Shown here piece by piece: positions 16,172-52,184 of a stretch of DNA of 64,000 nt. How positions within the stretch are numbered: the stretch's first letter is position 1; every line of letters starts with the position of its first letter. Position numbers and translations under genes: made by a program. The DNA comes from Phycisphaerales bacterium (GTDB lineage Bacteria > Planctomycetota > Phycisphaerae > Phycisphaerales > SM1A02): the NCBI GenBank assembly GCA_044220875.1, contig JBGAQH010000007.1:31673-95672 (forward strand), written 5' to 3'. The notes under the pieces are model-generated. The model did no database searches, was not told the origin of the DNA, and worked only from the letters and a program-made list of their open reading frames with translations.

Positions 16172-16173
16172 CG

Positions 16174-17046: not shown

Positions 17047-17066
17047 GGGGCCTCCAGATGTTTGGT

Positions 17067-17788: not shown

Positions 17789-17807
17789 GGGGCAGTCCAG
17801 CGATTCG

Positions 17808-18257: not shown

Positions 18258-18269
18258 GGCGGTGGGTCC

Positions 18270-18527: not shown

Positions 18528-18988
18528 GCGTCGGCTCCCTGCGTGGTCACGCGATAGGTGAGCCGGAGGACGCCGGTGTACTGCTTCAGCCGGTTCCAGT
18601 GGTCGAGATCGAGGATCGGATCGATCCGCATGGAGAGGTAGTGGGCTTCGCCCTGCGGAGCGCCCTCGAAGACGAGCGGCAGCGCCTTCTGGAAGAGGGC
18701 ATCGCCGATCGCCTCAAGGTTCGCGGCGAGAGCCGAGACCTCCGCCTCGTCCTCGGCGGCCTTCTGGAGGGCGACGAGGATCTCGCAGTCGTACTGGCCG
18801 CGACGCCGCGAGAGATTGGCGGGCGTCTCGGTCGAGGGAATCGCCCAGCAAGCGATGACGCTCATGTCCTCACGGTCGGTGAGCGGCATCCAGCGCATCT
18901 GGGCCTGCACGGGGATCGGCAGCGCCGCGGTGTTGATCGCGGTCGCCACCGCCTCGGCGACGAGGACGAGTCGGCAAGGCATGATCAC
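18524..18988 (-). CDS. head-tail/neck or tail-completion protein (putative)
   Basis: 154 aa. Overlaps both neighbours by 4 nt. Called by position in the connector region. Confidence 0.5.
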   Translation of the reverse strand: MIMPCRLVLVAEAVATAINTAALPIPVQAQMRWMPLTDREDMSVIACWAIPSTETPANLSRRRGQYDCEILVALQKAAEDEAEVSALAANLEAIGDALFQKALPLVFEGAPQGEAHYLSMRIDPILDLDHWNRLKQYTGVLRLTYRVTTQGADA

Positions 18989-24698: not shown

Positions 24699-24923
24699 TC
24701 AGGTGCCGGCCGAAGTTTTGCACCCCACCGGGCGTTTGCCGAAATGTCCGCCCTGCAACAGATCGATGGTGGTAAGTCGCCGTCCGCAGTTGCGGCACTC
24801 GCGCCGCCGGCGGATTCCACCGAAGGAGAGCTGCCGGGTGTTCACGACCCGAAGATGGGAGCAGCCGCAACCGCCGCATCGGATGCCAGCATGTCCGTCC
24901 GTCCGCGGGTGTTGCTCGCTCAT
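24699..24923 (-). CDS. small zinc-ribbon protein
   Basis: MSEQHPRTDGHAGIRCGGCGCSHL…RRECRNCGRRL has a CxxC…CxxC pattern. ATGA overlap with the TerL stop and GGAGG upstream. Confidence 0.55.
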   Translation of the reverse strand: MSEQHPRTDGHAGIRCGGCGCSHLRVVNTRQLSFGGIRRRRECRNCGRRLTTIDLLQGGHFGKRPVGCKTSAGT

Positions 24924-29130: not shown

Positions 29131-30477
29131 TCAGGCCTCGGCCAGCGCCGGGGCCTTCTCTGCGGCGGGGTCGTCCGCGCCGATGCGGGACGCCTTCGTC
29201 CCGGTGAACTCCTCGAAGCGCCGGACGATGACGTCGCAATAGAGCGGGTCGAGCTCCATGAGGAACGCCTTCCGCCCCGTCTGCTCGGCGGCGATGAGCG
29301 TCGAGCCCGAGCCGCCGAAGAGGTCGAGGATGTTCTCGCCGGGCCGCGACGAGTACTGCATGGCCCGCACCGCGAGCTCGACGGGCTTCTCGGTGAGGTG
29401 GACCATCGACTGCGGGTTCACCTTCTTGACGTGCCAGAGGTCTGTGGCGTTGTTCGGTCCGAGGAAGAGATGCGCCGCGCCCTCGCGCCAGCCGTAGAAG
29501 GCGATCTCGAAGGCGCCCATGAAGTCCTTGCGGGTCAACACCGGATGCTGCTTGTCCCACACGATGCCCTGGCTGAAGTAGAGCGCGTGCTTCTTGAGGT
29601 AGGGCGGATAGTTGCCGAGGTTCGCGTAGCCGCCCCAGATGTAGAACCCGCGGCCGGGCTCGAGCACGCGGGCCATGTTGCCGAACCACGCGTCGAGCAG
29701 CCCATCGAACGCCTCGTCGGTCACGAAGTCGTTGGCGAGCGGGCGGTCCTTCGCGCGAAGCTGCCTGTGTGTCGCCTTCGACTTCTCGGGGTGCCGCGCG
29801 ACATCCATCGACTGATGGTGGGTTGGTTTCGCGGCGCTGAACGACGAGAGGCCGGCGGCGATCGCGTTGTTCGATCGCGGCTCGACCTTCACGTTGTAGG
29901 GCGGGTCGGTGTTGACGAGGTGGATCCGTTCGCTGCCTAGGAGGCGATCAACATCCGCAGGTGACGAGCTGTCGCCGCAGAGGAGGCGATGGTTCCCGAG
30001 GAGCCAGAGGTCGCCCGGTCGCGTCGTGGCCTCGTCCGGCGGTGCGGGGATCGAGTCGGGATCGGTGAGCCCGTCCTTCACGTCGCCGGCGAAGATCTTG
30101 GCGAGCTCGTCCTCGTCGAAGCCGAGCGAGGCGAGGTCGATGTCGAGTTCACGAAGCGCCGCCAGCTCGATCGGCAGGAGGTCCATGTCCCACTCCGCAA
30201 GCTCGGCGGTCTTGTTGTCGGCGATGCGGTAGGCGCGGACCTGCTCGGGCGTGAGATCCTTCGCGACGTGCACCGGCACCTTCGCGAGTCCGAGCTTCTG
30301 TGCCGCCTTGAAGCGGGTGTGCCCGCAGACGATCACGCCGTCGGCATCGACGACGATCGGCTGCCGGAAGCCGTACTCGCGGATCGAGTGGGCCACGGCG
30401 TCAACCGCGTCGTCGTTGATGCGAGGGTTGTGCTCGTAGAGGCGGATGTCGGAGATAGGACGGATGTCGATCTTCAT
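29131..30477 (-). CDS. ParB-like nuclease domain - DNA N6-adenine methyltransferase fusion
   Basis: N-terminal ParB box (NPRINDDAVDAVAHSIREYGFRQPIVV…CGHTRFKAA), then VNTDPPYNV (motif IV) and ILDLFGGSGSTLIAAEQ (motif I). Confidence 0.85.
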   Translation of the reverse strand: MKIDIRPISDIRLYEHNPRINDDAVDAVAHSIREYGFRQPIVVDADGVIVCGHTRFKAAQKLGLAKVPVHVAKDLTPEQVRAYRIADNKTAELAEWDMDLLPIELAALRELDIDLASLGFDEDELAKIFAGDVKDGLTDPDSIPAPPDEATTRPGDLWLLGNHRLLCGDSSSPADVDRLLGSERIHLVNTDPPYNVKVEPRSNNAIAAGLSSFSAAKPTHHQSMDVARHPEKSKATHRQLRAKDRPLANDFVTDEAFDGLLDAWFGNMARVLEPGRGFYIWGGYANLGNYPPYLKKHALYFSQGIVWDKQHPVLTRKDFMGAFEIAFYGWREGAAHLFLGPNNATDLWHVKKVNPQSMVHLTEKPVELAVRAMQYSSRPGENILDLFGGSGSTLIAAEQTGRKAFLMELDPLYCDVIVRRFEEFTGTKASRIGADDPAAEKAPALAEA

Positions 30478-31159: not shown

Positions 31160-33343
31160 TCAGGCGATCTCATAGACCACCTTTGGCCGCGTGGCCGACG
31201 ATTCGATCTCGTGGCGCATCTGGCCGGTCTCCAAGAGGTTGTCGATGACCTCCTGCCGCTCGCGCTGGGTGAGCCACTGGGTCTTGCGGCATAGTTCAGC
31301 GCGGGAGATCCTTCCACCCGCCTTGCGCACGACGCGCATGACGCGCTTCTGCCTGGCGTCGAAGAGCCCGTCGGCGACCCACTCGTGGGCGACGTGGAGC
31401 ATGCGACGGGTCAGGTAGCGGGAGAGCTCACAGGCCCACCGCGCCGCCTCGGCGTCGATGACGGGCTTCGCGTGGTCGCGTGAGCAGGCGTAGATGAGGG
31501 CGAGGCGACAGGCCTTCTCTTCGGCGCGGGCCCAGAGCGACCTTCCGGCCTCGTCGGGCCTCGCGTACTCGGCGTCGACCGTTGCCGCCAGATCGTCGAA
31601 GACGATGCCGGCGTCGGCGGTGGTCTCGACGACCCTTGGTTCGGGATGCTCGAGCGCGAGGTTGCCTCCCGGCCGAAACGCTCCCCACCATGCGGCGGTG
31701 GCGACGATCGCCTCGGGAACAGGCACGGCCTTCGACCGCTGACGGCCCGGCGTGGCGTAGGCCTCGAAGACGAGCATGCGGGCGATGAACCCGTCGCTCA
31801 GGCTGTCGGCGGTGAGGGACTCGAAGAAGTGCTCGGGGACGGTCGTGCCGTAGACCGAGACGCAGGGTTGGTCGACGACCTTGTTCCGCTTCGGGTCGGC
31901 GTACGCCTTGCCGCGGAAGACGGTGTCGGCGCTCGAGAAGAGCTTCATGAGCGCGGTCAGGACGTTGAAGAGGTGCGGCGCCTTCTTCGGGTCGCCGATC
32001 GTCCTAAGAAAGCGCCCGAACTCGTCGATCTGGAAGAGGATCGACGGCTCGACCTCGACCGCCGCGAGGAGGCCCGCGTCTGAGGCGAGATCCTCGTTGC
32101 CCTCGTGCTCGATCAGGTCGGCTGCGAACAGGACATTCTTGTTGACCTTGCGGGCGTGGTCCTTGCCGGCGCCCGAGGGGGCGATGCCGACGCAGTAGAG
32201 GTTCGTCCTGTTGCCGCGCTCGTCGCGCACCTTGCGGCCGGCGAGCGTGGCTTGGAGGCAGATCGCCGCCGCGAGCGCGAGGACCGGTTGCGGCCTCGTC
32301 GCGGTCGCGAGGTTGTGGCGCATCACGGCATCGATGAAGCCGGGGACGTGCAGGAGCGCTGGCGGGAATGGGCCCGGATCCTCAGGACGGACGATCCGTC
32401 GCGGCTCGTCGTCCGCGTGAGCGGCCGTCGACACGCCGAACCCGGAGAGGTCGACATCGTTCGTCTCCGCCGGCGTCGCATCGCGCAGCCAACCGCGCGG
32501 GCGAGCATGCGGCTTGCTCGCGGCGTCGTCGATCTTGTGCTGCAGCTCGCGGTCGGTCCACGGCGGCACGCAGCGCGGGTTGTAGCGCTGGGCCAGCATG
32601 CGGAGCGCGACGTCGGGGGAGAGGCCGAAGCCGTGGACGAGCGCGGTCGCGGCGGCGAAGGTCCGGCCATGGCCGCCCTGGCCCGAGATCGCCGGCGGCA
32701 TGGCGTCGAGGTAGGCCTCGGCGCGGCGCTCGACGGCGTCGTCGGGGCGGGGTCCCGCCGTGGGCCGCGACGTTGGCCCACGTTCTGCCCGGGCCGCGAG
32801 GTCGCCGTGTCGGCGGGCCACGACGGCGGTGGCCAACGCGGCCACGCGGGCGGCGAGGTCGGCGGCGTCGACCCGGGGCGGGATCCCGTCGAGGTGGTCG
32901 TAGGGTTCGCCGCTCGGGTGCACGCTCGGGCCGATGAGCGTCTGGAGTCCGGTGCTTCGAAGTTCGACGATGCACTTCTCGGTGATCGGGTCGGCATGGC
33001 GGCGCGAGACTGCTCCCTCGGCGATGTACCAGCGGTGCGATCCGGGAGCGCTTGACCGCCCGGTCACGACGGGTGTGCTCGGGAGGTACTTGTCGGCCAG
33101 CTCGCGGGCCTCGTCGGAGTCGAGATCGACGTCGACGAGCCATCCGCTCGGTTCGCCGAGCAGGACGCCGATGTTGCCCGAGCCGTTGAAGTATTGCGGG
33201 AGGTCGGCGGGATCGAGGCGCAGGGCGTTCCAGCCCTTCGCGACCGGCCCCTTGCGGCCCGCCGGGACGGGGATGACCCGCAGGCCTCGAACGGTGTACG
33301 CGAAGGCGGCGTTGAGGAGGCGGTGGTGATGGGTGCTCGTCAC
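31160..33343 (-). CDS. bifunctional primase-polymerase (Prim-Pol) with DUF3987-like helicase region
   Basis: N-terminus RVIPVPAGRKGPVAKGWN…GVLLGEPSGWLVDVDLD…HRWY. Central region GIAPSGAGKDHARKVN. Confidence 0.8.
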   Translation of the reverse strand: MTSTHHHRLLNAAFAYTVRGLRVIPVPAGRKGPVAKGWNALRLDPADLPQYFNGSGNIGVLLGEPSGWLVDVDLDSDEARELADKYLPSTPVVTGRSSAPGSHRWYIAEGAVSRRHADPITEKCIVELRSTGLQTLIGPSVHPSGEPYDHLDGIPPRVDAADLAARVAALATAVVARRHGDLAARAERGPTSRPTAGPRPDDAVERRAEAYLDAMPPAISGQGGHGRTFAAATALVHGFGLSPDVALRMLAQRYNPRCVPPWTDRELQHKIDDAASKPHARPRGWLRDATPAETNDVDLSGFGVSTAAHADDEPRRIVRPEDPGPFPPALLHVPGFIDAVMRHNLATATRPQPVLALAAAICLQATLAGRKVRDERGNRTNLYCVGIAPSGAGKDHARKVNKNVLFAADLIEHEGNEDLASDAGLLAAVEVEPSILFQIDEFGRFLRTIGDPKKAPHLFNVLTALMKLFSSADTVFRGKAYADPKRNKVVDQPCVSVYGTTVPEHFFESLTADSLSDGFIARMLVFEAYATPGRQRSKAVPVPEAIVATAAWWGAFRPGGNLALEHPEPRVVETTADAGIVFDDLAATVDAEYARPDEAGRSLWARAEEKACRLALIYACSRDHAKPVIDAEAARWACELSRYLTRRMLHVAHEWVADGLFDARQKRVMRVVRKAGGRISRAELCRKTQWLTQRERQEVIDNLLETGQMRHEIESSATRPKVVYEIA

Positions 33344-37096: not shown

Positions 37097-37396
37097 TCAT
37101 GCAGCCGCGCTCGCAGGCGACGTGACGGGCGGCATTCGTCGGACCGCGAACGCATCGGCACCGATCTCGCGGGTCAGGAAGCCCGTGTAGATGCGAACGA
37201 CCGCGTCACCGACAGGAGTCGAGCCGTCGACGACGATCGTCGATCGCGGGGCATCAGCGAAGTACGACGCTTCCAAGCGGACCCGGGACTCACCGAAGAG
37301 TCCCTCGGCAGCCAGAAGCGAGAGGAGCAGGGTGGCCTCAACCTCATCGAGGGCGACGCCCTGTGCGAACGTGAATCGGAAGACGGCCGTGTTCAT
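37097..37396 (-). CDS. hypothetical phage protein (start uncertain)
   Basis: First ORF downstream of promoter-like motif copy iv. No motif recognised. Confidence 0.4.
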   Translation of the reverse strand: MNTAVFRFTFAQGVALDEVEATLLLSLLAAEGLFGESRVRLEASYFADAPRSTIVVDGSTPVGDAVVRIYTGFLTREIGADAFAVRRMPPVTSPASAAA

Positions 37397-37554
37397 CGTG
37401 GTGTTTCCAGGCAGTTGGACTCGCAAGCCGAACCCCGCGTCTGGAGTCTGGCCATGGAGGCAAGCGACGCTGCTTGCGGTCGCCGACCAAGCCCATAACC
37501 GGTTTCTCCGGAGCGGCGGACTCGATTGGGACGAGAGGTGCCACCTTGGGGGTC

Positions 37555-37584: not shown

Positions 37585-38184
37585 TCACCGGACATCGAGC
37601 CCGGCGTTCTCGAACCGACGCTTCATCCGCGCGAGCCTCTCGTCGATGTGCCGCCGCGAGACCGGGCCTCCTTCGAGACGGTGCCAGTCACGGGCGGTCG
37701 CGGAGACGCCATGGTCGCCAACGTGGACAAGGAGTCGCCGCTCTTCTGGCCCCAGCTGCGCGAACGCGTGGCCCGTCGCCTCGGCGATCTCCATCCGTTC
37801 AAGGGGACTCGCCTGAGGCTGGCCGGTCCGACGCGCTTGGTCGGCTGGTGCGATGACGTTCGCGAGCGGTTCCTTGTCGCCGTCGACCTCGATGTACGTC
37901 CGCTCGAGCGTCACCGTCATGACGTTCCCGAGCCGCTTGGCGCGGCCCCTGTAGCGGAGCGTCATGCCGACCCAAGTGTTCACGAGCTTGGTGACGAAGG
38001 CCTCGACGTTGCCCCGTGTCGGATCGAAGAGACGCTGCTTCTCCAGGAGGTAGAGATACATGCCCTGGCGGAGATCCTCACGATCGGACGGCGAGAAGTC
38101 TCGACGGCGACAGAGTTGGGCAGCCTTGATGCGGATGAAGGGTGCGGTGAATGGGTGGCTGACGACGTCGTGGCCCTTGGCCAT
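37585..38184 (-). CDS. sigma-70 family (ECF-like) sigma factor, phage-encoded
   Basis: Region-2-like FSPSDREDLRQGMYLYLLEK. C-terminal region-4-like HTH (LGPEERRLLVHVGDHGVSATARDW…IDERLARMKRRF). The start was chosen at MAKGHD. Confidence 0.6.
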   Translation of the reverse strand: MAKGHDVVSHPFTAPFIRIKAAQLCRRRDFSPSDREDLRQGMYLYLLEKQRLFDPTRGNVEAFVTKLVNTWVGMTLRYRGRAKRLGNVMTVTLERTYIEVDGDKEPLANVIAPADQARRTGQPQASPLERMEIAEATGHAFAQLGPEERRLLVHVGDHGVSATARDWHRLEGGPVSRRHIDERLARMKRRFENAGLDVR

Positions 38185-38347
38185 CGGATTGCTCCGAGGC
38201 CGGTCGTCGTGCTCCCGGGCGAGTCGCGCCGCGTTGCAGTCGGCCCGTGCCGCCGCTCGCTGCGGCGGCGATCCACGGGTGCGTCTCTGACTCACCGGTT
38301 ATGAGCGGACCGGCCTCGGACGCAGGCCGTGCTGTCGCGGCTGGCGC

Positions 38348-38376
38348 ATAAAAAGGGCGGGCCAAGTGGCCCGCCC
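38348..38376 (-). terminator. Rho-independent terminator
   Basis: On the minus strand: gggcgggcc-actt-ggcccgccc followed by TTTTTAT. Lies 30 nt after the stop at 38406. Confidence 0.8.
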
Positions 38377-38405
38377 GAGCGTTGCAAAGTGCTTTGCGAC
38401 AGCGA

Positions 38406-39365
38406 CTAGCGACGCTGCGCCAATTTTGTCGCCCTGTCGCGTGGCTGCGACGCGACAGTCCGTGCGACGGAGTCGGAGTCCGTCATGCGTCGTAAAGCGT
38501 CCGGCCCGCCGGCTGCCTTCACTGCGCGTTCGACGGCCCACCGGTCTGTGGCGAAGCCCGATTGGTTCAGTGCGTTGGCCGCCGCGCGGTACGAACCGTG
38601 CGTGACGTATGCCTGCACGAGGGCGTCGGCGGTTGCCATGGAGTCGACGGCCTGCTTGACTCGTCGACGGAATCGACTCGCCTCGGCTCCGCTCCCGGTG
38701 CCCTCTGCGTCAGTCGCATGGTCGAGGGCCTCGACCAGCGAACGGAGGGACATCGACTCGATCGCGAGCGATGCTCCCGTCCATGCCATGAGGTCCTCGA
38801 GTGGCACGCAGACCGGCACACGACCCGGCCATGGCACGTCGCCGGGCGGACTCCGTTCGACGAGGAGGATCTGCCGGCCGCTCCGGCCCGCACGTTGCGC
38901 GACCAGAGGTCCGTCGGGCGCCGTCAGTCCGAGCGCGAGCGCCACCTGTCGCATTCCGGTGCCCCACGCCAGCGAGCCGAGGGTCCAGTACCGACCGGGG
39001 AGGGCCTCGCGGAAGGGCGGAAGCAAGCCAAGTGCATCCGCGACCAGTTTCGCGAACGCCGCCCGGTCAAACCGCATCCGGGTCAGGGCGAGGTCGTCGA
39101 CTTCGAACCACCCGGCCTCCGGGCAAATGATCCATGATCGCGAGCTTGCCTCGACGTCTGCCTTGACCTGCGTGCGACGGTGGAGGAGATGAGATCCGCC
39201 GCACGAAGAGCATGGGATCGTTTCGGCAGGGCCCGTGTCGGTCACGATGCCGCGCTCCTGAAGCCACGCCAAGAATGCAGGCTCCCACTCGTCCAGCTCC
39301 TCGGTGCCGAACCGGAGGGCAGGGTCCGCCAGCGCGCACAGGATTGGGTCGATAGGGTCACGCAT
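38406..39365 (-). CDS. hypothetical protein, possible C-terminal HTH
   Basis: 319 aa. 8-nt overlap with the upstream gene. N-terminal CSSCGGSH. The C-terminal segment YVTHGSYRAAANALNQSGFATDRWAVERAVK looks HTH-like. Confidence 0.55.
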   Translation of the reverse strand: MRDPIDPILCALADPALRFGTEELDEWEPAFLAWLQERGIVTDTGPAETIPCSSCGGSHLLHRRTQVKADVEASSRSWIICPEAGWFEVDDLALTRMRFDRAAFAKLVADALGLLPPFREALPGRYWTLGSLAWGTGMRQVALALGLTAPDGPLVAQRAGRSGRQILLVERSPPGDVPWPGRVPVCVPLEDLMAWTGASLAIESMSLRSLVEALDHATDAEGTGSGAEASRFRRRVKQAVDSMATADALVQAYVTHGSYRAAANALNQSGFATDRWAVERAVKAAGGPDALRRMTDSDSVARTVASQPRDRATKLAQRR

Positions 39366-40539
39366 CGGTCACCCCCCACAGCCGGAGACATCGCTCGCCG
39401 ATGATCCGCCGCTCGTCGCGGGCGCCCTTGAGGTCGCACGAATTGGGCCCGCCGACGCCGAAGGTGAACGTCTTCGGGGTCTTGCCTGCCTCGGGAAGAA
39501 ACGTGAGCCTGAACCTGGCCCCGTGGAGCCGCAGCGAACGGAGCGGAGTCTCGACGGGATTCAGGCGCTTGCGGAGCGTTTCGTCGAGGCTCTCGCCTGC
39601 CGGGACATTGAGGATGATGTCCTCATCGCCGTTCGTGCCGAGGGGACGCAGCCGCACCGAAGTAATCTCGACGGTCGCGACGCGGTCGTCGGTCGCGGTG
39701 CGGAGGTTGCGCTCAGGCCAGAGCAGGTGGTCGAGCCGATAGGTTCGGCGCTTCCGCTCGAACCGGACGGCCTTCATCTCAAGGACGGTCTCGCAGAAGA
39801 TCCGCTGAAGCGCCTCGTAGACCGGCTGGCCTCCCTGGGCGTACATCGAGAGTGTGCCGTCGGCCGGACAGTGCACGAACACGACCTCGAAGGTTCGCCA
39901 CTCCTCGCCGCGGCGCTCCTTGCCGTCGGGTCCGAAGACCAGTGGGGCATCGGGGTAGTCGGCGAGCCGGACGAAGAAGTATTGCGCCCCCCCGGCGCGC
40001 TCGTGGGCGTGCACGCAGAAGTGCCTGCCGCGGAGTTCCTTGTTCTGAAAGAACGCCGCGACCCGCATGGCGAGCGCGTCCCGAAGCTCGGGCGTCGCGT
40101 CGATCGGCTTCTTGGGAAGGCTGTTGGTGGTAACCCAGTACCGGCCCGTCGACTTCATGTCGGCGTCGGCGACAAGGCGGGCCAGCTGGAAGGCCTGCGG
40201 GGCATTGACGAGCGTCCACATCGCTCGCTCGGCCCGGCCGGTCATCGCCTCGAACTCGCCAGCCCGCTCGGGCAACTGGCGCTGGATCTCTTCCGCGAGC
40301 GATCGAGTGCCGAAGCCCGTCTCGTCGGAGAGGTCGTGGATGTCGTGGAGCGCGACCTGGATCGCCTTGCCTCGGCCCTCGGGGAGCTGCGCGATGGCCT
40401 CGATGACGGGGTCGACGTCATGCTCGCCGAGCGAGTCCCAGTCGATGCCTTCGAGTCCGCCGTGGCTGTCGAAGAACAGCTTGAGGAGGGTGTTGGGGAT
40501 TTGCTTGAGGAGCCGTCGGGGGTCGTACTGGATCGTCAT
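39358..40539 (-). CDS. hypothetical protein (no recognisable domain)
   Basis: 393 aa. Co-directional, 86 nt downstream of the ImmA-like gene. Confidence 0.6.
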   Translation of the reverse strand: MTIQYDPRRLLKQIPNTLLKLFFDSHGGLEGIDWDSLGEHDVDPVIEAIAQLPEGRGKAIQVALHDIHDLSDETGFGTRSLAEEIQRQLPERAGEFEAMTGRAERAMWTLVNAPQAFQLARLVADADMKSTGRYWVTTNSLPKKPIDATPELRDALAMRVAAFFQNKELRGRHFCVHAHERAGGAQYFFVRLADYPDAPLVFGPDGKERRGEEWRTFEVVFVHCPADGTLSMYAQGGQPVYEALQRIFCETVLEMKAVRFERKRRTYRLDHLLWPERNLRTATDDRVATVEITSVRLRPLGTNGDEDIILNVPAGESLDETLRKRLNPVETPLRSLRLHGARFRLTFLPEAGKTPKTFTFGVGGPNSCDLKGARDERRIIGERCLRLWGVTDA

Positions 40540-40625
40540 GGCTGATTCACTCGCTTTCTGGCGGCGTGCCCCGCCTGTCTATGCGCAGTGAATGGTAAAC
40601 GTCCTGAGAACACATCCGCGTCCCG

Positions 40626-41339
40626 TCAGGTTGTGAACAGGTTCTGCTCCCTCTCCCGGACAAGCAGCCTGACGGCCGCCAACCGATGCCGGAGGGCTTC
40701 GGCTGAGACCTCGAGCCGGTCGGCCAGCGGGCGGCAGAGCCGGTCGATGGCCACCGCCTCGTCGCGCCGACGGTCGCCGGTGCGAGCGGGGGCTACGAGA
40801 TCCTGGATCACGAGGGGCTCGTCGCTCCCTCGCCACGCGACAAAGGCGCCTCTGAGGATTCGGCGGGGCATGAGCAGCATTGCAGCGAACTTGTTCGCCT
40901 GGACTTCCTCCGCCGCGGTGGCCCCGGCCCGGCAGATCACCGCGGGCGGTGGGTACGCCTCGTCAAGCGTCCGCTGCGAGGGGTCGGGCCGCAGGTGCTG
41001 CCGGTGGAGACGCCAGTGGCCGACCTCATGCGCGAGCGTGAACCGGAACCGCCCGAGCATGGCGCGGTTCAACGCGGGATCAAGCGAGCGGTCGATGCGG
41101 ATCGTGCGATCCTCAAACCAGATCGCACCGAGCACGTCCCGGTGCCCGAGCATCGCTCCGAGATCGCCCATCTCGACGGTGAGGCCAAGGTGGATCTCCG
41201 CGAGGTCCTCGATCGGGACTGGCGCGGCGACCTCGACTCCCTTCGACTTCTCCCATTCCGCGAGAAGAAGATCGGCCTCAGCCGCGATTGCCTCGTCGGC
41301 CAGGAATGGCACTCGATCCTTCCCGCGCGGGGCTCTCAC
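40626..41339 (-). CDS. ImmA/IrrE-family zinc metallopeptidase
   Basis: HEXXH motif in FTLAHEVGHWRLH. ATGA overlap with the upstream XRE gene. Confidence 0.8.
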   Translation of the reverse strand: MRAPRGKDRVPFLADEAIAAEADLLLAEWEKSKGVEVAAPVPIEDLAEIHLGLTVEMGDLGAMLGHRDVLGAIWFEDRTIRIDRSLDPALNRAMLGRFRFTLAHEVGHWRLHRQHLRPDPSQRTLDEAYPPPAVICRAGATAAEEVQANKFAAMLLMPRRILRGAFVAWRGSDEPLVIQDLVAPARTGDRRRDEAVAIDRLCRPLADRLEVSAEALRHRLAAVRLLVREREQNLFTT

Positions 41340-41740
41340 GATCCGCGTCCCTTCGCGCGCTTCAGCCGCTCCGCCTCCTCGACGAGCCGTTTGAGGTCTG
41401 CGGCGGTGAGTCCGCCAGCGGCCCTGAGCAGAGCAGGCATCGACGCGGGCTTCCGCTTGATGATGTCGGACAGGTCCTGTGGGACGCGTCCCGCGAGTGT
41501 GATCAGTCCGTCGGGGTCCTGCTCGAGGACCTCCGCCATCTTCCGCAGTCGCTCAAGCGTCGGCGGGCTCTCCACCTTCCCCTGCTCGACGAGGGAAATG
41601 TAGGTCGGGCTCAGATCCAGCATCTCAGCGAACTTCCTGAGGCTGTAGCCTTTGGCGACCCTCATCTCGCGGAGGGCCGCCCCGAAGGGTTGTTTGGATT
41701 GGCCCATTAGGTCCTCGGGTCGGTCGGCAACGTCGAGCAT
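41336..41740 (-). CDS. XRE-family HTH transcriptional regulator
   Basis: LREMRVAKGYSLRKFAEMLDLSPTYISLVEQGK. Alternative start at MGQSKQ. Confidence 0.8.
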   Translation of the reverse strand: MLDVADRPEDLMGQSKQPFGAALREMRVAKGYSLRKFAEMLDLSPTYISLVEQGKVESPPTLERLRKMAEVLEQDPDGLITLAGRVPQDLSDIIKRKPASMPALLRAAGGLTAADLKRLVEEAERLKRAKGRGS

Positions 41741-41922: not shown

Positions 41923-43665
41923 ATGCCGGGCGAAGCAAAGGATGCCGTGCGACGAGAAGTCGTCTCTGCGCTGAACACTGTTGCCCGGCGCCATGGGCTT
42001 GAAGTCGCCGAGAGTGGCAAGACGGCCCGGATGCGCGAGCTCGACGCTGCCGCGGGCTATTGGGCGGAGCCCACCACGGTGACTGCCAAGCCGCCTCGGT
42101 GGATCATCCAGTTGGCTGCTCATAGAGGTGACTGGATCGCCAGTGTGCCGAACTTGCCCGGGTCACGGCGCACCGCCTACTTCAACACTGCGAATCGGTA
42201 CGTCGGCGTCGGCTGCTTTCGCATAGCCCTCGCGGTGAAGTGGGACGACGTTCCAAGCTTCGCGTTTCCGTCCGATTGGGATTGGCTTCTATGGTTCGCG
42301 TTTAGTCCCGCACTGCGGAACGGTAGCAGTGGTCAGTTGTTGGATGACTTCGATCCATCGACCGGCATTCTCACCTATATGGGGCAACGCCAGCCGTATG
42401 TAGCAGCGGGGCTCGTCTGCCTTTCCCCGCCCACCGAGGAGTTTGCAATTGCTGGTCGCACCCTCACATACGGGCAGGCCACCGAGGCAATTCAGGGCCT
42501 CATTCATGTGGCTCCTCAAGTGTCGGTCGGTGGCGCTGCTCCGGCCGTGATGCCCATGGCTTCGATCGATGTCTTCGATGCGACCAACACCGCCTCTCGG
42601 CTTCTCTTGACGGAGAAGCTGGACGCTGCGTTCCGCGACGCGAAGACTTCCACGGCGGACGCGGAGGGCGACGGACTCGGAGGCGGAGCTCGCATTCCCG
42701 AGTTTCCGGGGCTCATCGGGTTGCCGCCATCTATCTCTCGGCAGATCGAGGCAGCGCTCAACTCGGGCAAGCGGCATCTGATGCTCTACGGCCCGCCCGG
42801 CACGGGCAAGACCACGCTCGCGCAACTTGTCGCTGGGTGCCTCGCAGATCAGTGGAAGTTGATCACCGCCTCCGCGGACTGGACTTCCCAAGACATCATC
42901 GGAGGCTACATGCCTCTGGAGGGAGGGAGGCTCAGGTTCTTGCCCGGAATTCTCCTTTCGAACTTCGACAGGCCGCTCATCATTGACGAGCTGAATCGCT
43001 GCGACATCGACAAGGTGATCGGGCCGCTGTTCACCGTGCTCAGTGGACACCCGACGACCCTTCCCTACCTAACCGAGCCCGGGAACCCGGAGTCGCCGAG
43101 ATACACGATTCTGCCGGAATCCAAGCCGGATCGCTCGCCTCACGAGTTCGCGCCGTCGCGCGACTGGCGGCTGATCGCGACGATCAACACTGTTGACAAG
43201 TCGTCGCTGTACCAGATGTCGTACGCCCTCTCCCGTCGGTTCGCATGGATCTTCGTGGATGTGCCAGCTTCCACATCCGGCTTCCTACTGGAGTGGCTGA
43301 GGTCAAAGGGCATGATCCCGGCGGATGGTGACTTGCCCACCTCAATCCCACTCGGGCAAGTCTGGGCCGCAGTCAACGCGATTCGGCCGCTTGGCCCCGC
43401 TCCCGCGATCGATTCAGTCATGTACATGAGGTCGGCAGCAGGAGACGAGACCGTGGATCAGTTGGCGCCGATCACCGGTGCCGAAGACGCTCGCGTGGAG
43501 ATGATCGTAGATGCTCTGGTTGTGTTCTTCCTTCCTCTCCTCGACGGCATTAGTCGGCAGGAAGGGGAGACGCTTGTGAGCGACGTTCGGGCCGCGCTTT
43601 CGCTCGCCCCTGAGCATGCGCTCGCGGATCGTCTTCGGCGATCCGTGCTCGCGATTTGCATATGA
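41923..43665 (+). CDS. McrB-like AAA+ (GTPase-type) protein with unknown N-terminal domain
   Basis: Walker A LMLYGPPGTGKT. McrB-type Walker B LIIDELNRCDIDKVIGPLFTVL. Also ATINTVDKS…ALSRRFAWIFV. The N-terminal ~270 aa are unassigned. GGAGAG Shine-Dalgarno sequence. Confidence 0.75.
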   Translation: MPGEAKDAVRREVVSALNTVARRHGLEVAESGKTARMRELDAAAGYWAEPTTVTAKPPRWIIQLAAHRGDWIASVPNLPGSRRTAYFNTANRYVGVGCFRIALAVKWDDVPSFAFPSDWDWLLWFAFSPALRNGSSGQLLDDFDPSTGILTYMGQRQPYVAAGLVCLSPPTEEFAIAGRTLTYGQATEAIQGLIHVAPQVSVGGAAPAVMPMASIDVFDATNTASRLLLTEKLDAAFRDAKTSTADAEGDGLGGGARIPEFPGLIGLPPSISRQIEAALNSGKRHLMLYGPPGTGKTTLAQLVAGCLADQWKLITASADWTSQDIIGGYMPLEGGRLRFLPGILLSNFDRPLIIDELNRCDIDKVIGPLFTVLSGHPTTLPYLTEPGNPESPRYTILPESKPDRSPHEFAPSRDWRLIATINTVDKSSLYQMSYALSRRFAWIFVDVPASTSGFLLEWLRSKGMIPADGDLPTSIPLGQVWAAVNAIRPLGPAPAIDSVMYMRSAAGDETVDQLAPITGAEDARVEMIVDALVVFFLPLLDGISRQEGETLVSDVRAALSLAPEHALADRLRRSVLAICI

Positions 43666-44912
43666 GCGACCTCTCGCCAATCATTGATGGGGCGATCATT
43701 CGCGTGCTTCTCCGGTACTTCAGAAGAGGCTCGCGAGTCGTCCTGCCACCTGGAGTCCGGACCGCGCGAGAGGACGCGGGACTGGTGATGATGCACTGGG
43801 CGATGTCGGCCGAGGTAGAACGGCTGGCGACGCGTCTTGCAATGAGTCCACACGAGGCCGATCTGGTGCTCGCTCAAGAGCGATCCGAATCTGATGGAAT
43901 CGCGCGAGGACGAATCGACGCGCGCAGCACGCTGTTAGTCCAGTTGCGGAGCGGTGATCATGGCCGCACAGTGTCCTTCGCGCCATCTAGGCATGCCGAT
44001 CATGGCGCCAACCGATTGATCGTCTGGGTCTTGAAGCGAGCGTCACAGTTGCTCGATCAAATCGAGGGGTTGATGGAGGACGGTAGCCCTTATCTCGAGC
44101 GGTGTACTGCCATTCGCTCGTCGGTCGCGAGAGCATCGCGGTTCTCGCGGGTGTCCGAACTCTTTCGGACGCTCCGTCTCTCCGACCGGCCTTGTGCGGG
44201 TGACGTGCGGCATGCAGCTACGCATCGAAAAGGCACCTACCGGCTCGGCGCCGCAGCATACTTGCGGCTAACCGCGATCGAGCGGGGAGACGAGTCCGCA
44301 GTAGCTGCGACGCTCCACGATTCTGTCATCGCGCCACTGGAGCCCTGGCGACGATTCGAGCTTCTCACCGCCTTGGCAGTGGCGGAGGAACTCTCGCGCG
44401 CCAGTACCGAGCCTCTGACACTGGAGATCCTGGGTTCCGGCGGTGCTTTAAGGCCGCTCGCCCGCTGTCGACCATATGAGGTCTTCTGGCAAGCTCGCAC
44501 CTCGTACTACACCGAACCTGGGCCGGAGCCGTCTGAACAAATCGCGGCGGGCATCTGTGAGGACTTCGGAATCTCTTGTGGAGCAGACCGACCGGATGTC
44601 GTGGTGGTCGACGCAGTGGCCAGGCGCGTAGTGGCGATCGCGGAGGCCAAGTTCATCGGCGGAACGGCGGGCTACGAGTCTGGCCCGTTTACGGACGCCG
44701 TGCTCCAACTTGTTAGGTATGCGCGAGGCTACGATCCGGGCGTTCTTGCACGGTCAGTGATCGCGATGTCGAGGCTCCCTGCGCAGGTCTGCGTCGGAAG
44801 TCCAAGTGGTCGGTCACCGTTCGCGATCGATCTCGCCGGGTTGCTCAGTGGCGAGCTGGCTAGATGGAATCCGTCGGTTCGTTCCCTCATCGACCTCCCC
44901 GATGCAACGTGA
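43656..44912 (+). CDS. McrC-like PD-(D/E)xK nuclease partner
   Basis: 10-nt overlap with the McrB-like gene. C-terminal DRPDVVVVDAVARRVVAIAEAKF fits the PD…ExK pattern. Confidence 0.6.
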   Translation: MHMSDLSPIIDGAIIRVLLRYFRRGSRVVLPPGVRTAREDAGLVMMHWAMSAEVERLATRLAMSPHEADLVLAQERSESDGIARGRIDARSTLLVQLRSGDHGRTVSFAPSRHADHGANRLIVWVLKRASQLLDQIEGLMEDGSPYLERCTAIRSSVARASRFSRVSELFRTLRLSDRPCAGDVRHAATHRKGTYRLGAAAYLRLTAIERGDESAVAATLHDSVIAPLEPWRRFELLTALAVAEELSRASTEPLTLEILGSGGALRPLARCRPYEVFWQARTSYYTEPGPEPSEQIAAGICEDFGISCGADRPDVVVVDAVARRVVAIAEAKFIGGTAGYESGPFTDAVLQLVRYARGYDPGVLARSVIAMSRLPAQVCVGSPSGRSPFAIDLAGLLSGELARWNPSVRSLIDLPDAT

Positions 44913-45056: not shown

Positions 45057-46289
45057 TCAGCGTGCTATCGCTAAGTCTGAATCACGAGGCGCTGACTTCC
45101 GCGACGCAGAACCGCGCTTACCCGACTCGCCTGTGCCCAGACGAGCTGGCTCGGCTCCGTCCACCAACGAGCACGGCGCGGAGATCTGGTACGAGCCCTG
45201 AGCGGGCGTTGATGGCCGTGGCTCTCGCAGGAACCTCGACTGCCCGCCCTTCAGGAAGTTCGCGTCAAGCTCACAGCAAATCCACTTGCGGTTCAACCTG
45301 TCGCAGACCTCACCAGTGACGCACGATCCTGCAAACGGATCGAGCACCACATCGCCTTCATCCGTGAGCATTCTCACGAAGTACTCGGGGAGGAGCGAAG
45401 GGAATCGTGCCGGGTGGATCGGGAGCTCGTGCTCCCGGCAATATGCCTGATAGTGGCTATTCGATTCCGTGTTTGCGATGGCGAGTAGGTTTGGCGGAAC
45501 CGAACCGCCGTTGTGGCGCTGGAACTTTGTAGAGATGTCGTGTCCCGACGGTCGCAGCGCGGCCTTGTATCCGTTCTTTAGAAGATGTTCCATCGCTGGC
45601 GAGTAGGGTGCGAGCACTCGGCGGTTGTCAGCCTTCGGCCACGGACTCGGCGACAGCCACCAGACGCAATTGACCGCGTCCTTCACGCGAATTCTTCGGA
45701 TGTTCACCCACTCTGCAGGCGTTGGAAGTTTCGATGGACTCCACCAGTAGTGCTCCTGACAGAGATGGAATCCAAACTCTCTGCATAGGCTGATGAGCAA
45801 CTCGAAGTGGTAGAGCGACCGCGTCGGGGTGCCGGGCTTCCACGCACCGCCGATGTCGATCACGAGGCTCCCTTGCTCCTTGAGCACGCGGTGGAATCCC
45901 GCCGCGAATGGCCTGAACCAGTCGACGTACTGGTCTGCGTCCTCGTTGCCGTATGACTTCTTCCGCACCAGTCCGAAGGGCGGTGATGTGACGATCAGGT
46001 CTACCGAGCGCGGAGCGAGCGTCTTCAGGAGCAGACCACGCGAGTCGCCGTGGTAGATCGTGCCGCGACGAACTCGCGCAAAGACCTTCGGCTCGTCAAC
46101 CTCGCAGGCTCCGGGCGCCCGCGTCGCAGCGTGTTCCGCCAGGTGGCGCCGGTGGAGGGACCGAACATACTCGCTGATGGTCGGAAACCCTGCCTCCTCG
46201 GCGGCCTTCTGCATCGCGGCGTGTTCGGGTTCTGTCAGGCGGACGTTCGCGGTCGCTGACCGGGGAGTGGCTGCTCTGGGCCTAGGCAT
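45057..46289 (-). CDS. DNA methyltransferase (SPPF motif, N4-cytosine-like) with N-terminal ribbon-helix-helix domain
   Basis: N-terminus RLTEPEHAAMQKAAEEAGFPTISEYVRSL (RHH-like). Motif IV DLIVTSPPFGL. Motif I VVLDPFAGSCVTGEV. Confidence 0.8.
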   Translation of the reverse strand: MPRPRAATPRSATANVRLTEPEHAAMQKAAEEAGFPTISEYVRSLHRRHLAEHAATRAPGACEVDEPKVFARVRRGTIYHGDSRGLLLKTLAPRSVDLIVTSPPFGLVRKKSYGNEDADQYVDWFRPFAAGFHRVLKEQGSLVIDIGGAWKPGTPTRSLYHFELLISLCREFGFHLCQEHYWWSPSKLPTPAEWVNIRRIRVKDAVNCVWWLSPSPWPKADNRRVLAPYSPAMEHLLKNGYKAALRPSGHDISTKFQRHNGGSVPPNLLAIANTESNSHYQAYCREHELPIHPARFPSLLPEYFVRMLTDEGDVVLDPFAGSCVTGEVCDRLNRKWICCELDANFLKGGQSRFLREPRPSTPAQGSYQISAPCSLVDGAEPARLGTGESGKRGSASRKSAPRDSDLAIAR

Positions 46290-46332: not shown

Positions 46333-46806
46333 CTAGTGGGTTCTTGTGTGACAAGAACGCTCCGACGGAATATCGCGTCGAAGCCGCGCCCACTTGAGTC
46401 GCTGCCCCGCCCAGCGTCTCTCTTGCACCACCTGTCGTAGGTCGCGCTCGCTCAACTGGCCGCGGCCGCATGGCAGGCCGGGGAGCAGGAGGATCTCCTC
46501 CTGAATGTCTGGCGCGAGGTGCAGCAGGTTCATGATCTGTGTCATCCGTGGCTGGGTCACGCGAGCGAGCTTGGCGAGCTCCGACTGGTTCGCGACGACG
46601 CCTTCCCGAAGCAACTCATCGAATCGGATCGCCAACGCCATCAGCCGAGCAACGCGCGGGACGCGGCCGTCGTTGGCGTCCGCGACGACTCTTGAACTGC
46701 CGGATGGCTCGGGCGGGTATGAGCCCGGGCCGGCGGCCGTGGCCACGACGGCCCGCTTGCGGCGGTCCCTCGTCGTGAACCGGATCGATCGGGTGACGGT
46801 CGTCAT
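46333..46806 (-). CDS. HTH protein of the recombinase module
   Basis: …NQSELAKLARVTQPRMTQIMNLLHLAPDIQEEIL… 4-nt overlap with the recombinase stop. Confidence 0.6.
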   Translation of the reverse strand: MTTVTRSIRFTTRDRRKRAVVATAAGPGSYPPEPSGSSRVVADANDGRVPRVARLMALAIRFDELLREGVVANQSELAKLARVTQPRMTQIMNLLHLAPDIQEEILLLPGLPCGRGQLSERDLRQVVQERRWAGQRLKWARLRRDIPSERSCHTRTH

Positions 46807-48386
46807 GCGGCTTCCTCCAGTCGTAGTGCGATCAACGCTCCGATGCTCGTCGGGCGGAACGTCACGGCCACGGTCCCGGCGGTCGCGTCGTACTCGACGG
46901 TCGAAATGAGAAGGCGAAGCAGTCGTGCCTGCTCGCGTGGGATCAGGTTCTGCCAGAGCGCGTCGAAGTCGGCGAACGCGACTTCGGCCTCAGCCCGAGT
47001 GATCGTGTCTCGCCCGATGTCGGCGAGTCGGGCCTCGACTTGGGGCAGGCGGCGCTCGGCGTCCGCGACTCGCTCATGGAGGTTGGCGATAGCGGCCGCC
47101 GTGGCTGCGGTGGGTGGGGCAGTGATCTGCGCCCGCAGTTCTCGGTGATGCTGCGCGACGGCAGATCGGAGCGAGACATGTTCAGCGGTCAGCGCCTTTC
47201 GGTCTGCCTCAAGCGTGGCTTGCGTCTCCGCGAGAATCTGCGCGACCAAGGTCCGGTCGCGGGCGAGCGCTCGCACCTCGTCGACGACCAGTCGCTCGAT
47301 CTCGGCCGCGGGAACGGTGCCCGATGGGCAGACGTCGGCTCCGCTCTTGATCGCCTTCACGCACCGGTAGTAGCGGTACGAGCGGCTCTTCCGTCCGCCC
47401 GCGAACGTGTGCGTCATCGAGTGATCGCAGCACTTGCACCGGAGCAGGCCGCGAAGGAGGGCGCCGTACTTGTTGCGGACCTCGGCACCGCCGGTGCGGC
47501 CGTTGGTCTTGAGGAGGGCCTGGACTCGCTCGAATATCTCACGGTCGATGATCGCGGCGTGCTCGCCGTCGTAGATCGCGTCTCGATGGACGATCTTCCC
47601 GATGTAGATCGGATTGGTCAGCGTCTGGTGGAGCGAGCTCTTGTCGAAGGCCTTCCCGCCGAGAGCCTTGCCCTTCTTCGTGACGCGGCTCTTGTTGGAC
47701 CATTGCCGCCGCGCGAGCTCGCTCACGACTGGCAGGAGCGAGCCCTTCTCGAGGTAGAGCGAGAAGATCTGTCGGACACGTGCCGCCTCGGCTTCGTTGA
47801 TGACCAGATGCGGGCTCGGTCCCGACCGGTCGACGTCGTAGCCCAAGACGGGGACGCCACCAGCCCACTTCCCCTTGCGCTTCTGCGCCGCGATCTTGTC
47901 GCGGATGCGCTCGCCGATGATCTCGCGCTCGAACTGGGCGAAGGAGAGCAGGATGTTCAGCGTGAGCCGTCCCATCGAGCTCGTCGTGTTGAACTGCTGG
48001 GTGACCGAGACGAACGACACGCCCTTGCGGTCGAACGCCTCCATAATCCGGGCGAAGTCCATGAGCGAGCGGCTGAGGCGGTCGACCTTGTAGACGACGA
48101 CGCAGTCGACCTTGCCCGTCTCGATGTCGCGGAGCAGACGGTCGAGCGCCGGCCGCTCCATGCTTCCGCCGGAGAACCCGCCGTCGTCGTAGCGATCGGC
48201 GACGCAGGTCCACCCCTCGGCCTTCTGGCTGGCGATGAACGCCTCGGCGCTCTCTCGCTGAGCATCCAGCGAGTTGAACTCTTGATCGAGGCCCTCGTCG
48301 CTCGACTTGCGGGTGTAGATGGCGCAGCGGATCGATCGCTTCACGTCGACCGCCACCGGCGAACCGGTTCGTCGGCGCCCGCTCAT
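46803..48386 (-). CDS. large serine recombinase
   Basis: IRCAIYTRKSSDEGLDQEFNSLDAQRE carries the catalytic Ser motif. Resolvase core …VVVYKVDRLSRS… and zinc-ribbon region CKCCDHSM…YYRC. The ATG at 48386 overlaps the DUF2924 stop (ATGA). Confidence 0.85.
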   Translation of the reverse strand: MSGRRRTGSPVAVDVKRSIRCAIYTRKSSDEGLDQEFNSLDAQRESAEAFIASQKAEGWTCVADRYDDGGFSGGSMERPALDRLLRDIETGKVDCVVVYKVDRLSRSLMDFARIMEAFDRKGVSFVSVTQQFNTTSSMGRLTLNILLSFAQFEREIIGERIRDKIAAQKRKGKWAGGVPVLGYDVDRSGPSPHLVINEAEAARVRQIFSLYLEKGSLLPVVSELARRQWSNKSRVTKKGKALGGKAFDKSSLHQTLTNPIYIGKIVHRDAIYDGEHAAIIDREIFERVQALLKTNGRTGGAEVRNKYGALLRGLLRCKCCDHSMTHTFAGGRKSRSYRYYRCVKAIKSGADVCPSGTVPAAEIERLVVDEVRALARDRTLVAQILAETQATLEADRKALTAEHVSLRSAVAQHHRELRAQITAPPTAATAAAIANLHERVADAERRLPQVEARLADIGRDTITRAEAEVAFADFDALWQNLIPREQARLLRLLISTVEYDATAGTVAVTFRPTSIGALIALRLEEAA

Positions 48387-48889
48387 CGCTCGCCCTCGAG
48401 GCGGAAGAACCGGAACCCGTTCAGGTGGCTCCCGGTCACCTTCTTGGCGACGGCGGTGAGCGTGCGGAAGCGTTCGCCGTTCCATTCGAAGCCCTCGTCC
48501 TTGGGCAGGACCAGCACGCGAATCGTGCGGCCCTTGTACTCGCGGACGATTGCAGAGCCCGCGGGCGGCAGGCGTCGATCATCGTGGTCGTCGCCGTGGA
48601 CGCGGCGGCGAACGGTCTTCGCGGTGCCCGACTGCGGCGGGCTGACCAGCGTCTTCGGGGCCATGACCCGCACCTCGGCGTCGTCGGCCAGTTCGGCGGC
48701 CCGACGTCGTGCCCGTTCGCTGAGGTCGCCCTCGGCGTTGGCCTGAATGCGCCAAGCGATCTTCCGGATGAGGTACTGCCGGTGGCGGGTGCGGCATGGG
48801 TAGCCGTGGACCTCGGCGAAGCGCTCGACGAGCTCCGTCGTGGTCATGCGCTCGAGCGCGTTGATCTGGTCTTCGATGGACTCCGGCAT
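48383..48889 (-). CDS. DUF2924-family protein
   Basis: …TTELVERFAEVHGYPCRTRHRQYLIRKIAWRIQA… and …EYKGRTIRVLVLPKDEGFEWNGERFRTLTAVAKKVTGSHLNGFRFF…. Confidence 0.7.
   Translation of the reverse strand: MPESIEDQINALERMTTTELVERFAEVHGYPCRTRHRQYLIRKIAWRIQANAEGDLSERARRRAAELADDAEVRVMAPKTLVSPPQSGTAKTVRRRVHGDDHDDRRLPPAGSAIVREYKGRTIRVLVLPKDEGFEWNGERFRTLTAVAKKVTGSHLNGFRFFRLEGER

Positions 48890-52110: not shown

Positions 52111-52184
<74 letters not shown>

Follow-up and report, generated by a model that had tools for sequence, protein, structure and literature searches.

A probable immunity-to-early junction in a Phycisphaerales prophage, with an XRE-ImmA pair, two uncharacterized proteins, and a sigma factor gene behind a structured leader

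We analyzed a 64,000-nucleotide stretch of DNA from a Phycisphaerales bacterium (contig JBGAQH010000007.1 of assembly GCA_044220875.1, positions 31,673 to 95,672), here called the window, and four of its minus-strand genes. These encode an XRE-family helix-turn-helix (HTH) repressor, an ImmA/IrrE-type M78 zinc metallopeptidase, and two uncharacterized proteins, which we call C and D. With a confidence somewhat above even, we read the region as the junction between the immunity and early genes of a temperate siphovirus-like prophage, in which an ImmR/ImmA-type switch is followed by a separate early regulatory pair, C-D, upstream of a gated extracytoplasmic function (ECF) sigma factor gene. The synteny and the module structure are much better supported than the function of C-D. 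An earlier note on this DNA had proposed a self-contained cassette of regulator and effectors acting in phage defense. Homologs of C and D turned out to be position-conserved early genes, standing between the immunity genes and those for sigma and replication in about 130 planctomycete prophage and viral loci, an outcome that the note itself had named as refuting its proposal; what we describe is not a new defense system, and is instead a known kind of switch containing two uncharacterized families.

RESULTS

XRE-ImmA-C-D head the early arm of a prophage

Library scans of the proteins encoded in the window revealed a siphovirus-like prophage of about 39 kb, read on the minus strand. Its gene order is serine integrase, variable cargo, XRE, ImmA, C, D, a terminator and structured leader, an ECF-type sigma factor gene, replication genes, and then the genes from terminase to tail (Table 1). 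XRE-ImmA-C-D are the head of the early/replication arm and not, as the earlier note had it, part of an accessory arm. All four open reading frames (ORFs) described in that note were present, and so was the 8-nt overlap of the 393- and 319-aa ORFs (ATGCGTGA). The 4-nt overlap of XRE and ImmA, given there as ATGA, reads GTGA, with ImmA starting at GTG.

The XRE protein matched HTH_3 (E = 3e-13) and HTH_31 (3e-12), and its PHROG class is transcriptional repressor. The second ORF matched Peptidase_M78 (E = 7e-12) and carries the HEXXH motif as HEVGH at residues 104 to 108. These domain matches, together with the overlap, bear out the assignment of the two genes as an XRE regulator and an ImmA/IrrE peptidase forming a pair of the ImmR/ImmA type. 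As in ImmR/ImmA of ICEBs1 and phage phi105, and also DdrO/IrrE of Deinococcus, the gene for an XRE-family HTH repressor overlaps that for an M78 HEXXH peptidase behind it. Like the pairs of ICEBs1 and phi105, the window pair resides in an integrative element with an integrase, and an operator-like site heads the early genes. Unlike them, it is codirectional with the genes that it presumably represses, variable cargo separates the integrase from the switch, and the operon opens with two uncharacterized proteins and an ECF-type sigma factor rather than with xis or conjugation genes. Repressor cleavage and DNA binding by the window pair are predictions; that ImmA would cleave XRE follows from the behavior of the family.

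Both proteins also gave significant matches to the PADLOC models of CapH and CapP, the regulators of cyclic oligonucleotide-based antiphage signaling system (CBASS) and other immune operons. XRE matched nearly the whole capH model (2.4e-10), and ImmA matched capP (3.5e-16) only at model positions 14 to 120 of 242, which is the peptidase half and leaves the C-terminal half of the model unmatched; the two models also catch generic XRE and M78 proteins. The pairs have in common an HTH domain joined to an M78 peptidase and a presumed DNA-damage-responsive derepression of the adjoining operon. CapH/CapP genes typically lie on the opposite strand from the recognized immune operon, with a shared promoter (10.1101/2022.04.27.489752), whereas the genes of the window are codirectional and are followed by phage early genes that match no defense model. 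Because of this typical divergence and the half-matched capP model, the window pair fits the logic of ImmR/ImmA better than that of CapH/CapP. To judge from these matches, XRE-ImmA is most likely the prophage's own ImmR/ImmA-type immunity switch.

An operator-like motif lies between ImmA and C

The 86-nt spacer between ImmA and C holds an operator/promoter-like motif that begins GTTTACCATTCAC (positions 40574 to 40600), together with an inverted repeat made up of CCATTCACTG (40586 to 40595) and CGAGTGAATCAG (40542 to 40553). Among relatives this spacer is 54 to 91 nt long. A GTTTAC-like motif, usually overlapping a TACNGT-N7-ACNGTA palindrome, was present in 69 of 70 nonredundant spacers of the XRE type and was missing from all of the roughly 20 loci that lack XRE. 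The GTTTAC motif was also found 3′ of ImmA in two loci without C-D (L177 and L199) and in an Actinomycetia locus. The recognition helix of XRE, SPTY(L/I/V)S(Q/L/H), varies together with the class of the operator, the operator variants tracking the residue that follows SPTYLS (Q, L, H, or the YVSQ class). No second copy of the palindrome, of the kind that would suggest autoregulation, was found upstream of XRE within 3 mismatches.

Since this conserved motif stands in the spacer, a single four-gene transcription unit is not established. The simplest reading of the motif is that XRE represses a promoter directly upstream of C and that C-D would be the first genes of a repressor-controlled early operon. 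From the position of this XRE-linked motif, C-D are therefore predicted to be off in the lysogen.

C-D behave as a backbone component of the phage lineage

We assembled 131 loci anchored on C, 80 of them from genomes and 51 from IMG/VR, and scanned them by tblastn with the proteins of the window. D was matched in 122 of the 131 loci, so C and D are conserved as a pair. The sigma factor was matched in 110 loci, Sak4 in 97, ImmA in 92, XRE in 90, the helicase (p731) in 81, and the DUF669 protein in 80, with the same order and orientation throughout. With hidden Markov models, and counting only loci with sufficient downstream sequence, 110 of 121 loci had the sigma gene no more than 1.5 kb downstream of D. 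The same tblastn scan found the McrB-like ATPase and its 418-aa partner in 0 of the 131 loci and the methylase of the integrase-XRE interval in 2. This interval is therefore a real cargo/defense hotspot, and the defense context on which the earlier note had drawn is not shared by the relatives of C-D.

A second scan was anchored on the sigma factor, with a closer subset of the sigma family as the query, and comprised 62 IMG/VR loci that were not selected for C-D. Most of those with at least 2.5 kb of upstream sequence had C-D directly upstream, including a clade of about 33% sigma identity in which D and sigma are about 50 nt apart. The position of C-D was kept in about 80% of the sigma-anchored loci, and 11 sigma loci lacked C-D. 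Identities across loci were 33 to 45% for C and 26 to 55% for sigma. Because C-D occupy the same position in C-anchored and sigma-anchored loci, down to about 33% sigma identity, they behave as a long-lived backbone component of the phage lineage and not as turnover cargo.

XRE-ImmA and C-D are separable modules

We then looked at what precedes C in the 105 C-anchored loci with at least 1.5 kb of upstream sequence. A codirectional XRE-ImmA pair was found in 84 of them and a different, divergent module in 8, while the other 13 had neither. The divergent module consists of an ECF sigma factor (Sigma70_r2, 1.7e-9), a 134-aa protein (p134), and a 303-aa M78 peptidase (8.6e-11), and it may represent a lysogeny switch built from a sigma factor, an anti-sigma factor, and a protease. 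One of the 8 loci, L046, is carried by a cultured host, Planctomycetales bacterium ZRK34. Among the other 13 are loci of a Pirellulales type, in which a serine recombinase and a small HTH-like protein (p137) directly precede C.

The reverse exchange also occurs. In two loci (L177 and L199) XRE-ImmA is followed by a 115- to 123-aa protein and then by sigma, and in a third (L196) ImmA is followed by a 141-aa protein and then by sigma, in all three cases without C-D. The small replacing protein has two internal repeats that look DUF2292-like, the match in L177 being weak (E = 0.13). A close relative with 54% sigma identity (L146) has neither XRE-ImmA nor C-D; between its integrase and sigma genes (3007 to 5629, plus strand), as also in L147, are genes for a 285-aa protein and a QatC-like protein (PADLOC QatC, 9.7e-58).

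XRE-ImmA and C-D are thus two separable modules that are exchanged independently. The two uncharacterized proteins are not always beside XRE-ImmA, as either module occurs without the other. An unusual lysogeny switch, which the earlier note had offered as its alternative, comes close to these data.

Proteins C and D

As the earlier note had found by eye, neither large protein could be assigned: C and D had no match in Pfam, NCBIfam, or PADLOC (PADLOC-DB v2, E ≤ 0.01, 0 families for each), and D had none in PHROGs. C matched phrog_37634, whose function is not assigned, over its full length (6e-30). At 90% identity the homologs of C form 38 clusters and those of D 63, mostly from Phycisphaerae and from other metagenome-assembled genomes (MAGs) of Planctomycetota. 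An exhaustive profile search extended the C family to 2,427 cluster representatives at 50% identity, nearly all of about 390 aa. Sequence profiles of C, D, and the C-terminal part of D gave nothing meaningful against the PDB, and tblastn with C, D, and a distant homolog, P0038, found no match in 50,697 phage records. A plasmid collection gave one distant match, which is described below.

The AlphaFold2 (AF2) model of C (pLDDT 86.6) has an N-terminal helical domain and two alpha/beta domains. Its best PDB matches in Foldseek were to CENP-N/Chl4, with E of about 2e-3 to 1e-2 and a probability that reached 0.99 for the N-terminal half. Escherichia coli RdgC (2owl) was matched at E = 0.03; both are DNA- or nucleosome-binding folds. 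A fold search of BFVD returned uncharacterized proteins only. The model of C thus bears a weak resemblance to the DNA-binding CENP-N/RdgC fold, from which C differs in its extra N-terminal helical domain and in having an obligate partner gene.

The AF2 model of D (pLDDT 78) comprises N-terminal helices, a zinc beta-ribbon, an alpha/beta domain, and a C-terminal helical region. The ribbon is of the Cys2-His-Cys type, and its residues C52, C55, H59, and C81 are invariant or nearly so; in a fold search of the PDB, only zinc-ribbon fragments of the TFIIS/Rpb9 type were matched (probability of about 0.9). The C-terminal sequence HGSYRKAADAL..TDRWAVERAVKAAGG looks like an HTH of the Fis type, and the protein ends in a conserved tail of low model confidence, apparently disordered, with the sequence DSxSVxRTVASQxRDR.

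The 8-nt overlap of C and D is also kept in distant pairs. A 491-aa relative of D retains the first approximately 200 residues of D and has a different C terminus, and the 391-aa gene before it overlaps it by 8 nt; it is thus probably the N-terminal part of D that is specific for the partner. From the overlap and the models, C-D are probably a translationally coupled pair of nucleic acid-binding early proteins, which may form a complex. We also considered whether C-D might correspond to CapK/CapS and ruled this out, CapK and CapS being an anti-sigma-type kinase and a STAS protein.

Distant pairs head other operons near integrases

C-D were also found in unrelated mobile elements. A mercury resistance (mer) island carries a C homolog of 29% identity; where D would be expected stands a gene of 263 aa, and alpA, HTH_17, and tyrosine integrase genes follow. 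In an Actinomycetia MAG, the gene order is a serine recombinase, p151, XRE, ImmA, C, and a short D. The plasmid match mentioned above is from "Candidatus Tenderia electrophaga" (CP013100.1, 8992 to 14820), where a C homolog (hhalign probability, 99.5%) and a D-like protein (E = 1e-4) stand directly before multiubiquitin, JAB, and ThiF/E1 genes and a tyrosine integrase. This pair, too, matched 0 PADLOC families, and no C- or D-like components are described in the Bil/Bub literature on ubiquitin-like operons. No E2 gene was evident in the Tenderia ubiquitin-like operon. C-D thus stand at the front of varied operons close to integrases, in mobile elements that are not related to each other, and this pattern suits a role in regulation or element housekeeping better than a structural role specific to one lineage.

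A terminator and a covarying leader precede the sigma gene

The terminator that the earlier note had placed after D is there: a 9-bp stem made up entirely of G:C pairs (38376 to 38355), a 4-nt loop, and TTTTT, with termination activity predicted. A hairpin and T-run lie at the same offset after the D stop codon in 38 of 106 related loci, the stems differing with compensating changes. A generic scan found 6 terminator-like sites in the surrounding 8 kb versus 4.4 expected, which is not an enrichment.

The sigma gene starts at the ATG at 38184, giving 199 aa and preceded by a conserved GGAG, rather than at the GTG of the longest ORF (38295), and the spacer between D and sigma is therefore about 220 nt. 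Of 28 family members, 27 matched Sigma70_r2 (best, 6e-10), 2 each matched Sigma70_r4 and Sigma70_r4_2, and 3 matched Sigma70_ECF. The family profile matched RpoE/ECF SigE in the PDB through region 2 (2e-8) and RpoS and SigL through region 4. By these matches, the gene product is a divergent ECF-type sigma factor.

The leader between the terminator and the sigma gene is conserved at the nucleotide level in 95 nonredundant loci (window positions 38342 to 38179), with an invariant GCGAC at its 5′ end. RNAalifold gave a poor consensus on the raw MAFFT alignment, and the structure was instead derived from folds of the individual sequences, which agree in a long, irregular six-helix hairpin, and from pair counting on an alignment (A5) of 49 sequences less than 90% identical. 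In these sequences 85.7% of the cells were paired, compared with 37 to 42% when the partners were slid. Changes on both sides were seen at 27 of the 44 pairs, with 120 cells carrying double changes, and 0 of 500 column shuffles reached the observed pairing values. The many G:U pairs on this strand suggest an RNA rather than duplex DNA. In the outer helix TCCGAGGCCGG pairs with CCGGCCTCGGA, and CCGGCCTCGGA runs into the GGAG ribosome-binding site; as the helix reaches into GGAG, it would mask the initiation of sigma translation, and in the predicted structure it appears to do so.

The leader matched no family in Rfam 15. Only the tRNA of the window passed its Rfam gathering score, and the best local match, Xoo2 (21 bits against a threshold of 45 bits), overlaps the terminator and not the leader. 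A covariance model of the leader, R1, scored the window leader at 109.5 bits and placed the leader directly upstream of sigma in C-D-positive loci, among them L073 and L142. It found nothing in seven sigma loci without C-D, even with filters off, and every locus in which it placed the leader carries C-D. In L073 the leader stays with sigma despite about 7 kb inserted after D, so the D-sigma spacer, too, can take insertions. The insert (12188 to 18837) lies between D and the leader and sigma gene and has two large minus-strand ORFs of 442 and 1,581 aa. The leader belongs to sigma and is clade restricted, because it is found with sigma in L073 and is undetectable in another clade (L179 to L193); C-D may be functionally linked to it.

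The 5′ end of the leader reads (G/A)AACC-GCGACA-N10-CGTCC, and we considered whether this might be an autoregulated ECF promoter or regulon motif. The idea was left unsupported: the motif is not repeated elsewhere in the window, and covariation in helix P1 implies that the 5′ region of the leader is transcribed.

Surrounding genes

The serine recombinase is upstream of and codirectional with XRE-ImmA-C-D, and at least 34 loci have a homolog of it 0.1 to 9 kb upstream of C. Downstream of sigma are p109, a Sak4/AAA_24 protein, a DUF669 protein resembling single-stranded-DNA-binding (SSB) proteins, an SNF2-type helicase, Prim-Pol/DUF3987, and a ParB-methylase fusion. The small p109 had no match in the family-library scans. 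Genes for the portal, the protease/major head (capsid) protein, and the major tail protein are also on the minus strand, between terminase and tape measure. Just past the integrase end, a gene for a protein with TPR and HEPN_LA2681 domains (E = 1e-72; 50186 to 51775, minus strand) adjoins a tRNA-Met gene (52111 to 52184, minus strand); this area could be the attachment region or hold a neighboring defense gene.

Table 1. Features of the window and, in the last two rows, of related loci
Feature	Position	Strand	Remarks
XRE-family HTH repressor	41336-41740	-	134 aa; 123 aa (internal ATG) preferred by a gene caller
ImmA/IrrE-type M78 zinc metallopeptidase	40626-41339	-	237 aa; 4-nt overlap with XRE
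ImmA-C spacer with operator/promoter-like motif	40540-40625	-	86 nt
Protein C, uncharacterized	39358-40539	-	393 aa
Protein D, uncharacterized	38406-39365	-	319 aa; 8-nt overlap with C
Intrinsic-terminator-like hairpin and T-run	38348-38376	-	30 nt after D stop
Structured leader, about 165 nt	38179-38342	-	Includes sigma start codon; covariation; covariance model R1
Divergent ECF-type sigma factor	37585-38184	-	199 aa; Sigma70_r2
Small protein p109, 3′ of sigma	37097-37426	-	Function not assigned; tblastn match in 68/131 loci, position kept
Prim-Pol/DUF3987 primase-helicase	31160-33343	-	Replication arm; in 57/131 related loci
ParB_N-DNA methylase fusion	29131-30477	-	Replication arm; in 46/131 related loci
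Terminase large subunit	24920-27202	-	Library scan
Tape measure	13029-15014	-	Library scan
McrB-like AAA_5 ATPase	41923-43665	+	Domain scan
Partner of McrB-like ATPase	43656-44912	+	418 aa, overlapping; possibly McrC-like, no family match
N6/N4 DNA methylase	45057-46289	-	NikA-like N terminus; domain scan
Large serine recombinase (prophage integrase)	46803-48485	-	Resolvase, Recombinase, and Zn_ribbon_recom domains
Divergent ECF-sigma/134-aa/M78 module	L018 7872-9734	-	Also in L021, L027, L030, L046, L098, L112, L129
Small protein replacing C-D	L177 4558-4929; L199 7120-7467; L196 2986-3411

DISCUSSION

We propose that the region works as follows. XRE would bind the GTTTAC/palindrome operator in the 86-nt spacer and keep the early promoter off in the lysogen, and the M78 peptidase would inactivate XRE upon an induction signal. 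C and D would then be the first proteins expressed after derepression and, as a complex, may regulate the developmental cascade at an early stage, with expression of the ECF-type sigma gene immediately downstream as the likeliest target. The terminator and the leader that occludes the ribosome-binding site would gate this gene, and the sigma factor would in turn drive the replication and late genes. In this scheme the binding of XRE to the motif and the regulatory role of C-D are what we infer.

Examples of phage early cascades built on phage sigma factors are those of SPO1 (gp28) and T4 (gp55), and leader or terminator gating of phage regulators is exemplified by N/nut and Q/qut of lambda. 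The window resembles them in that early genes lie directly behind the immunity region and are followed by a terminator, a phage sigma gene, and the replication and structural genes. It differs in that its sigma factor is ECF-like, no homology to N, Q, or put is present, and a conserved RNA downstream of the terminator appears to mask a ribosome-binding site.

Several observations weigh against this proposal. The correlation between operator and XRE is confounded by shared ancestry. In the window there is no terminator between ImmA and C, so cotranscription of XRE-ImmA-C-D is possible there, and a strict hairpin with a T-run follows the ImmA stop codon in only 19 of 70 relatives. No homology in Pfam, NCBIfam, PADLOC, or PHROGs assigns an activity to C or D. 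The fold matches of C are weak (E of about 2e-3 to 3e-2; template modeling [TM] scores of 0.2 to 0.46), and membership in the RdgC family is ruled out, since C has no sequence relationship to RdgC (hhalign with alignment A3, probability 0.1% against the E. coli protein) and no match to Pfam PF04381. The C-terminal HTH that the earlier note had suspected in D has the look of a Fis-type sequence, but no profile from the family libraries or the PDB supports it. R1 found nothing in the clade L179 to L193, which is C-D positive and has D and sigma about 50 nt apart, and this leaves a dedicated link between C-D and the leader unproven. Finally, C-D also occur without any sigma gene, and control of sigma therefore cannot be their sole role.

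We weighed three other accounts of C-D. According to one, which we consider unlikely, they are DNA-transaction factors that control excision and its directionality, modulate RecA/Sak4 recombination as RdgC does, or recognize the origin. C-D do lie within a few genes of the integrase in phages with serine integrases, in the Pirellulales loci (integrase, p137, C, and D), in the mer island, and on the Tenderia plasmid; Sak4 and an SSB-like protein are encoded nearby, C has its faint likeness to RdgC and CENP-N DNA-binding folds, and excision and replication begin at early expression. However, C-D accompany serine and tyrosine integrases alike, which speaks against a directionality factor tied to one integrase, and the sigma gene and the terminator stand between C-D and the replication and recombination genes. 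No sequence relationship emerged to RdgC by hhalign or to replication-initiator or excisionase families in the library scans.

Still less probable, in our estimate, is that C-D are effectors of an undescribed defense, superinfection exclusion, or anti-defense module that a CapH/CapP-like XRE-ImmA would switch on upon DNA damage. XRE and ImmA do match the capH and capP models, and CapH/CapP-type pairs regulate diverse immune operons (10.1101/2022.04.27.489752). The integrase-to-sigma interval is a cargo hotspot, other genes fill the C-D slot in some relatives, and one distant C-D pair adjoins a ubiquitin-like/JAB/E1 operon. Set against this, XRE-ImmA belongs to the phage backbone and not to C-D, and it is codirectional with the following genes, where CapH/CapP are typically divergent, and lacks the C-terminal half of the capP model. 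C and D match no PADLOC model, and they diverged alongside the phage backbone with their position kept, while true cargo such as the McrB-like gene turns over. The operator, moreover, predicts that C-D are repressed in the lysogen, which is when exclusion would be needed. We give an equally low standing to a third account, in which C-D are a two-protein, signal-responsive regulator of integrative elements that acts on the terminator and leader, either through antitermination or by freeing the masked ribosome-binding site, and thereby licenses synthesis of the phage ECF sigma factor.

The junction of an ImmR/ImmA-type switch with a separate early pair, our preferred reading, defines how the passage from lysogeny to lysis is laid out in a large uncultured family of temperate phages of Planctomycetes, mainly Phycisphaerae. 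This junction consists of an ImmR/ImmA-type switch or an alternative ECF-sigma/M78 module, two early proteins, and an ECF sigma gene that a terminator and a covarying leader precede. The real cargo/defense hotspot of these phages is the interval next to the integrase, which holds an McrB-like gene and a methylase in the window and QatC in a relative. Of the new objects, the leader RNA is the most concrete, and it is a testable candidate for a new cis-regulatory motif. If C-D indeed acted through it, their regulation would be a new developmental checkpoint between loss of the repressor and commitment to lysis, and the leader of about 165 nt would be a new class of cis-regulatory RNA. A function for the C family, whose 2,427 clusters at 50% identity lie outside Pfam and NCBIfam, would annotate thousands of genes of mobile elements.

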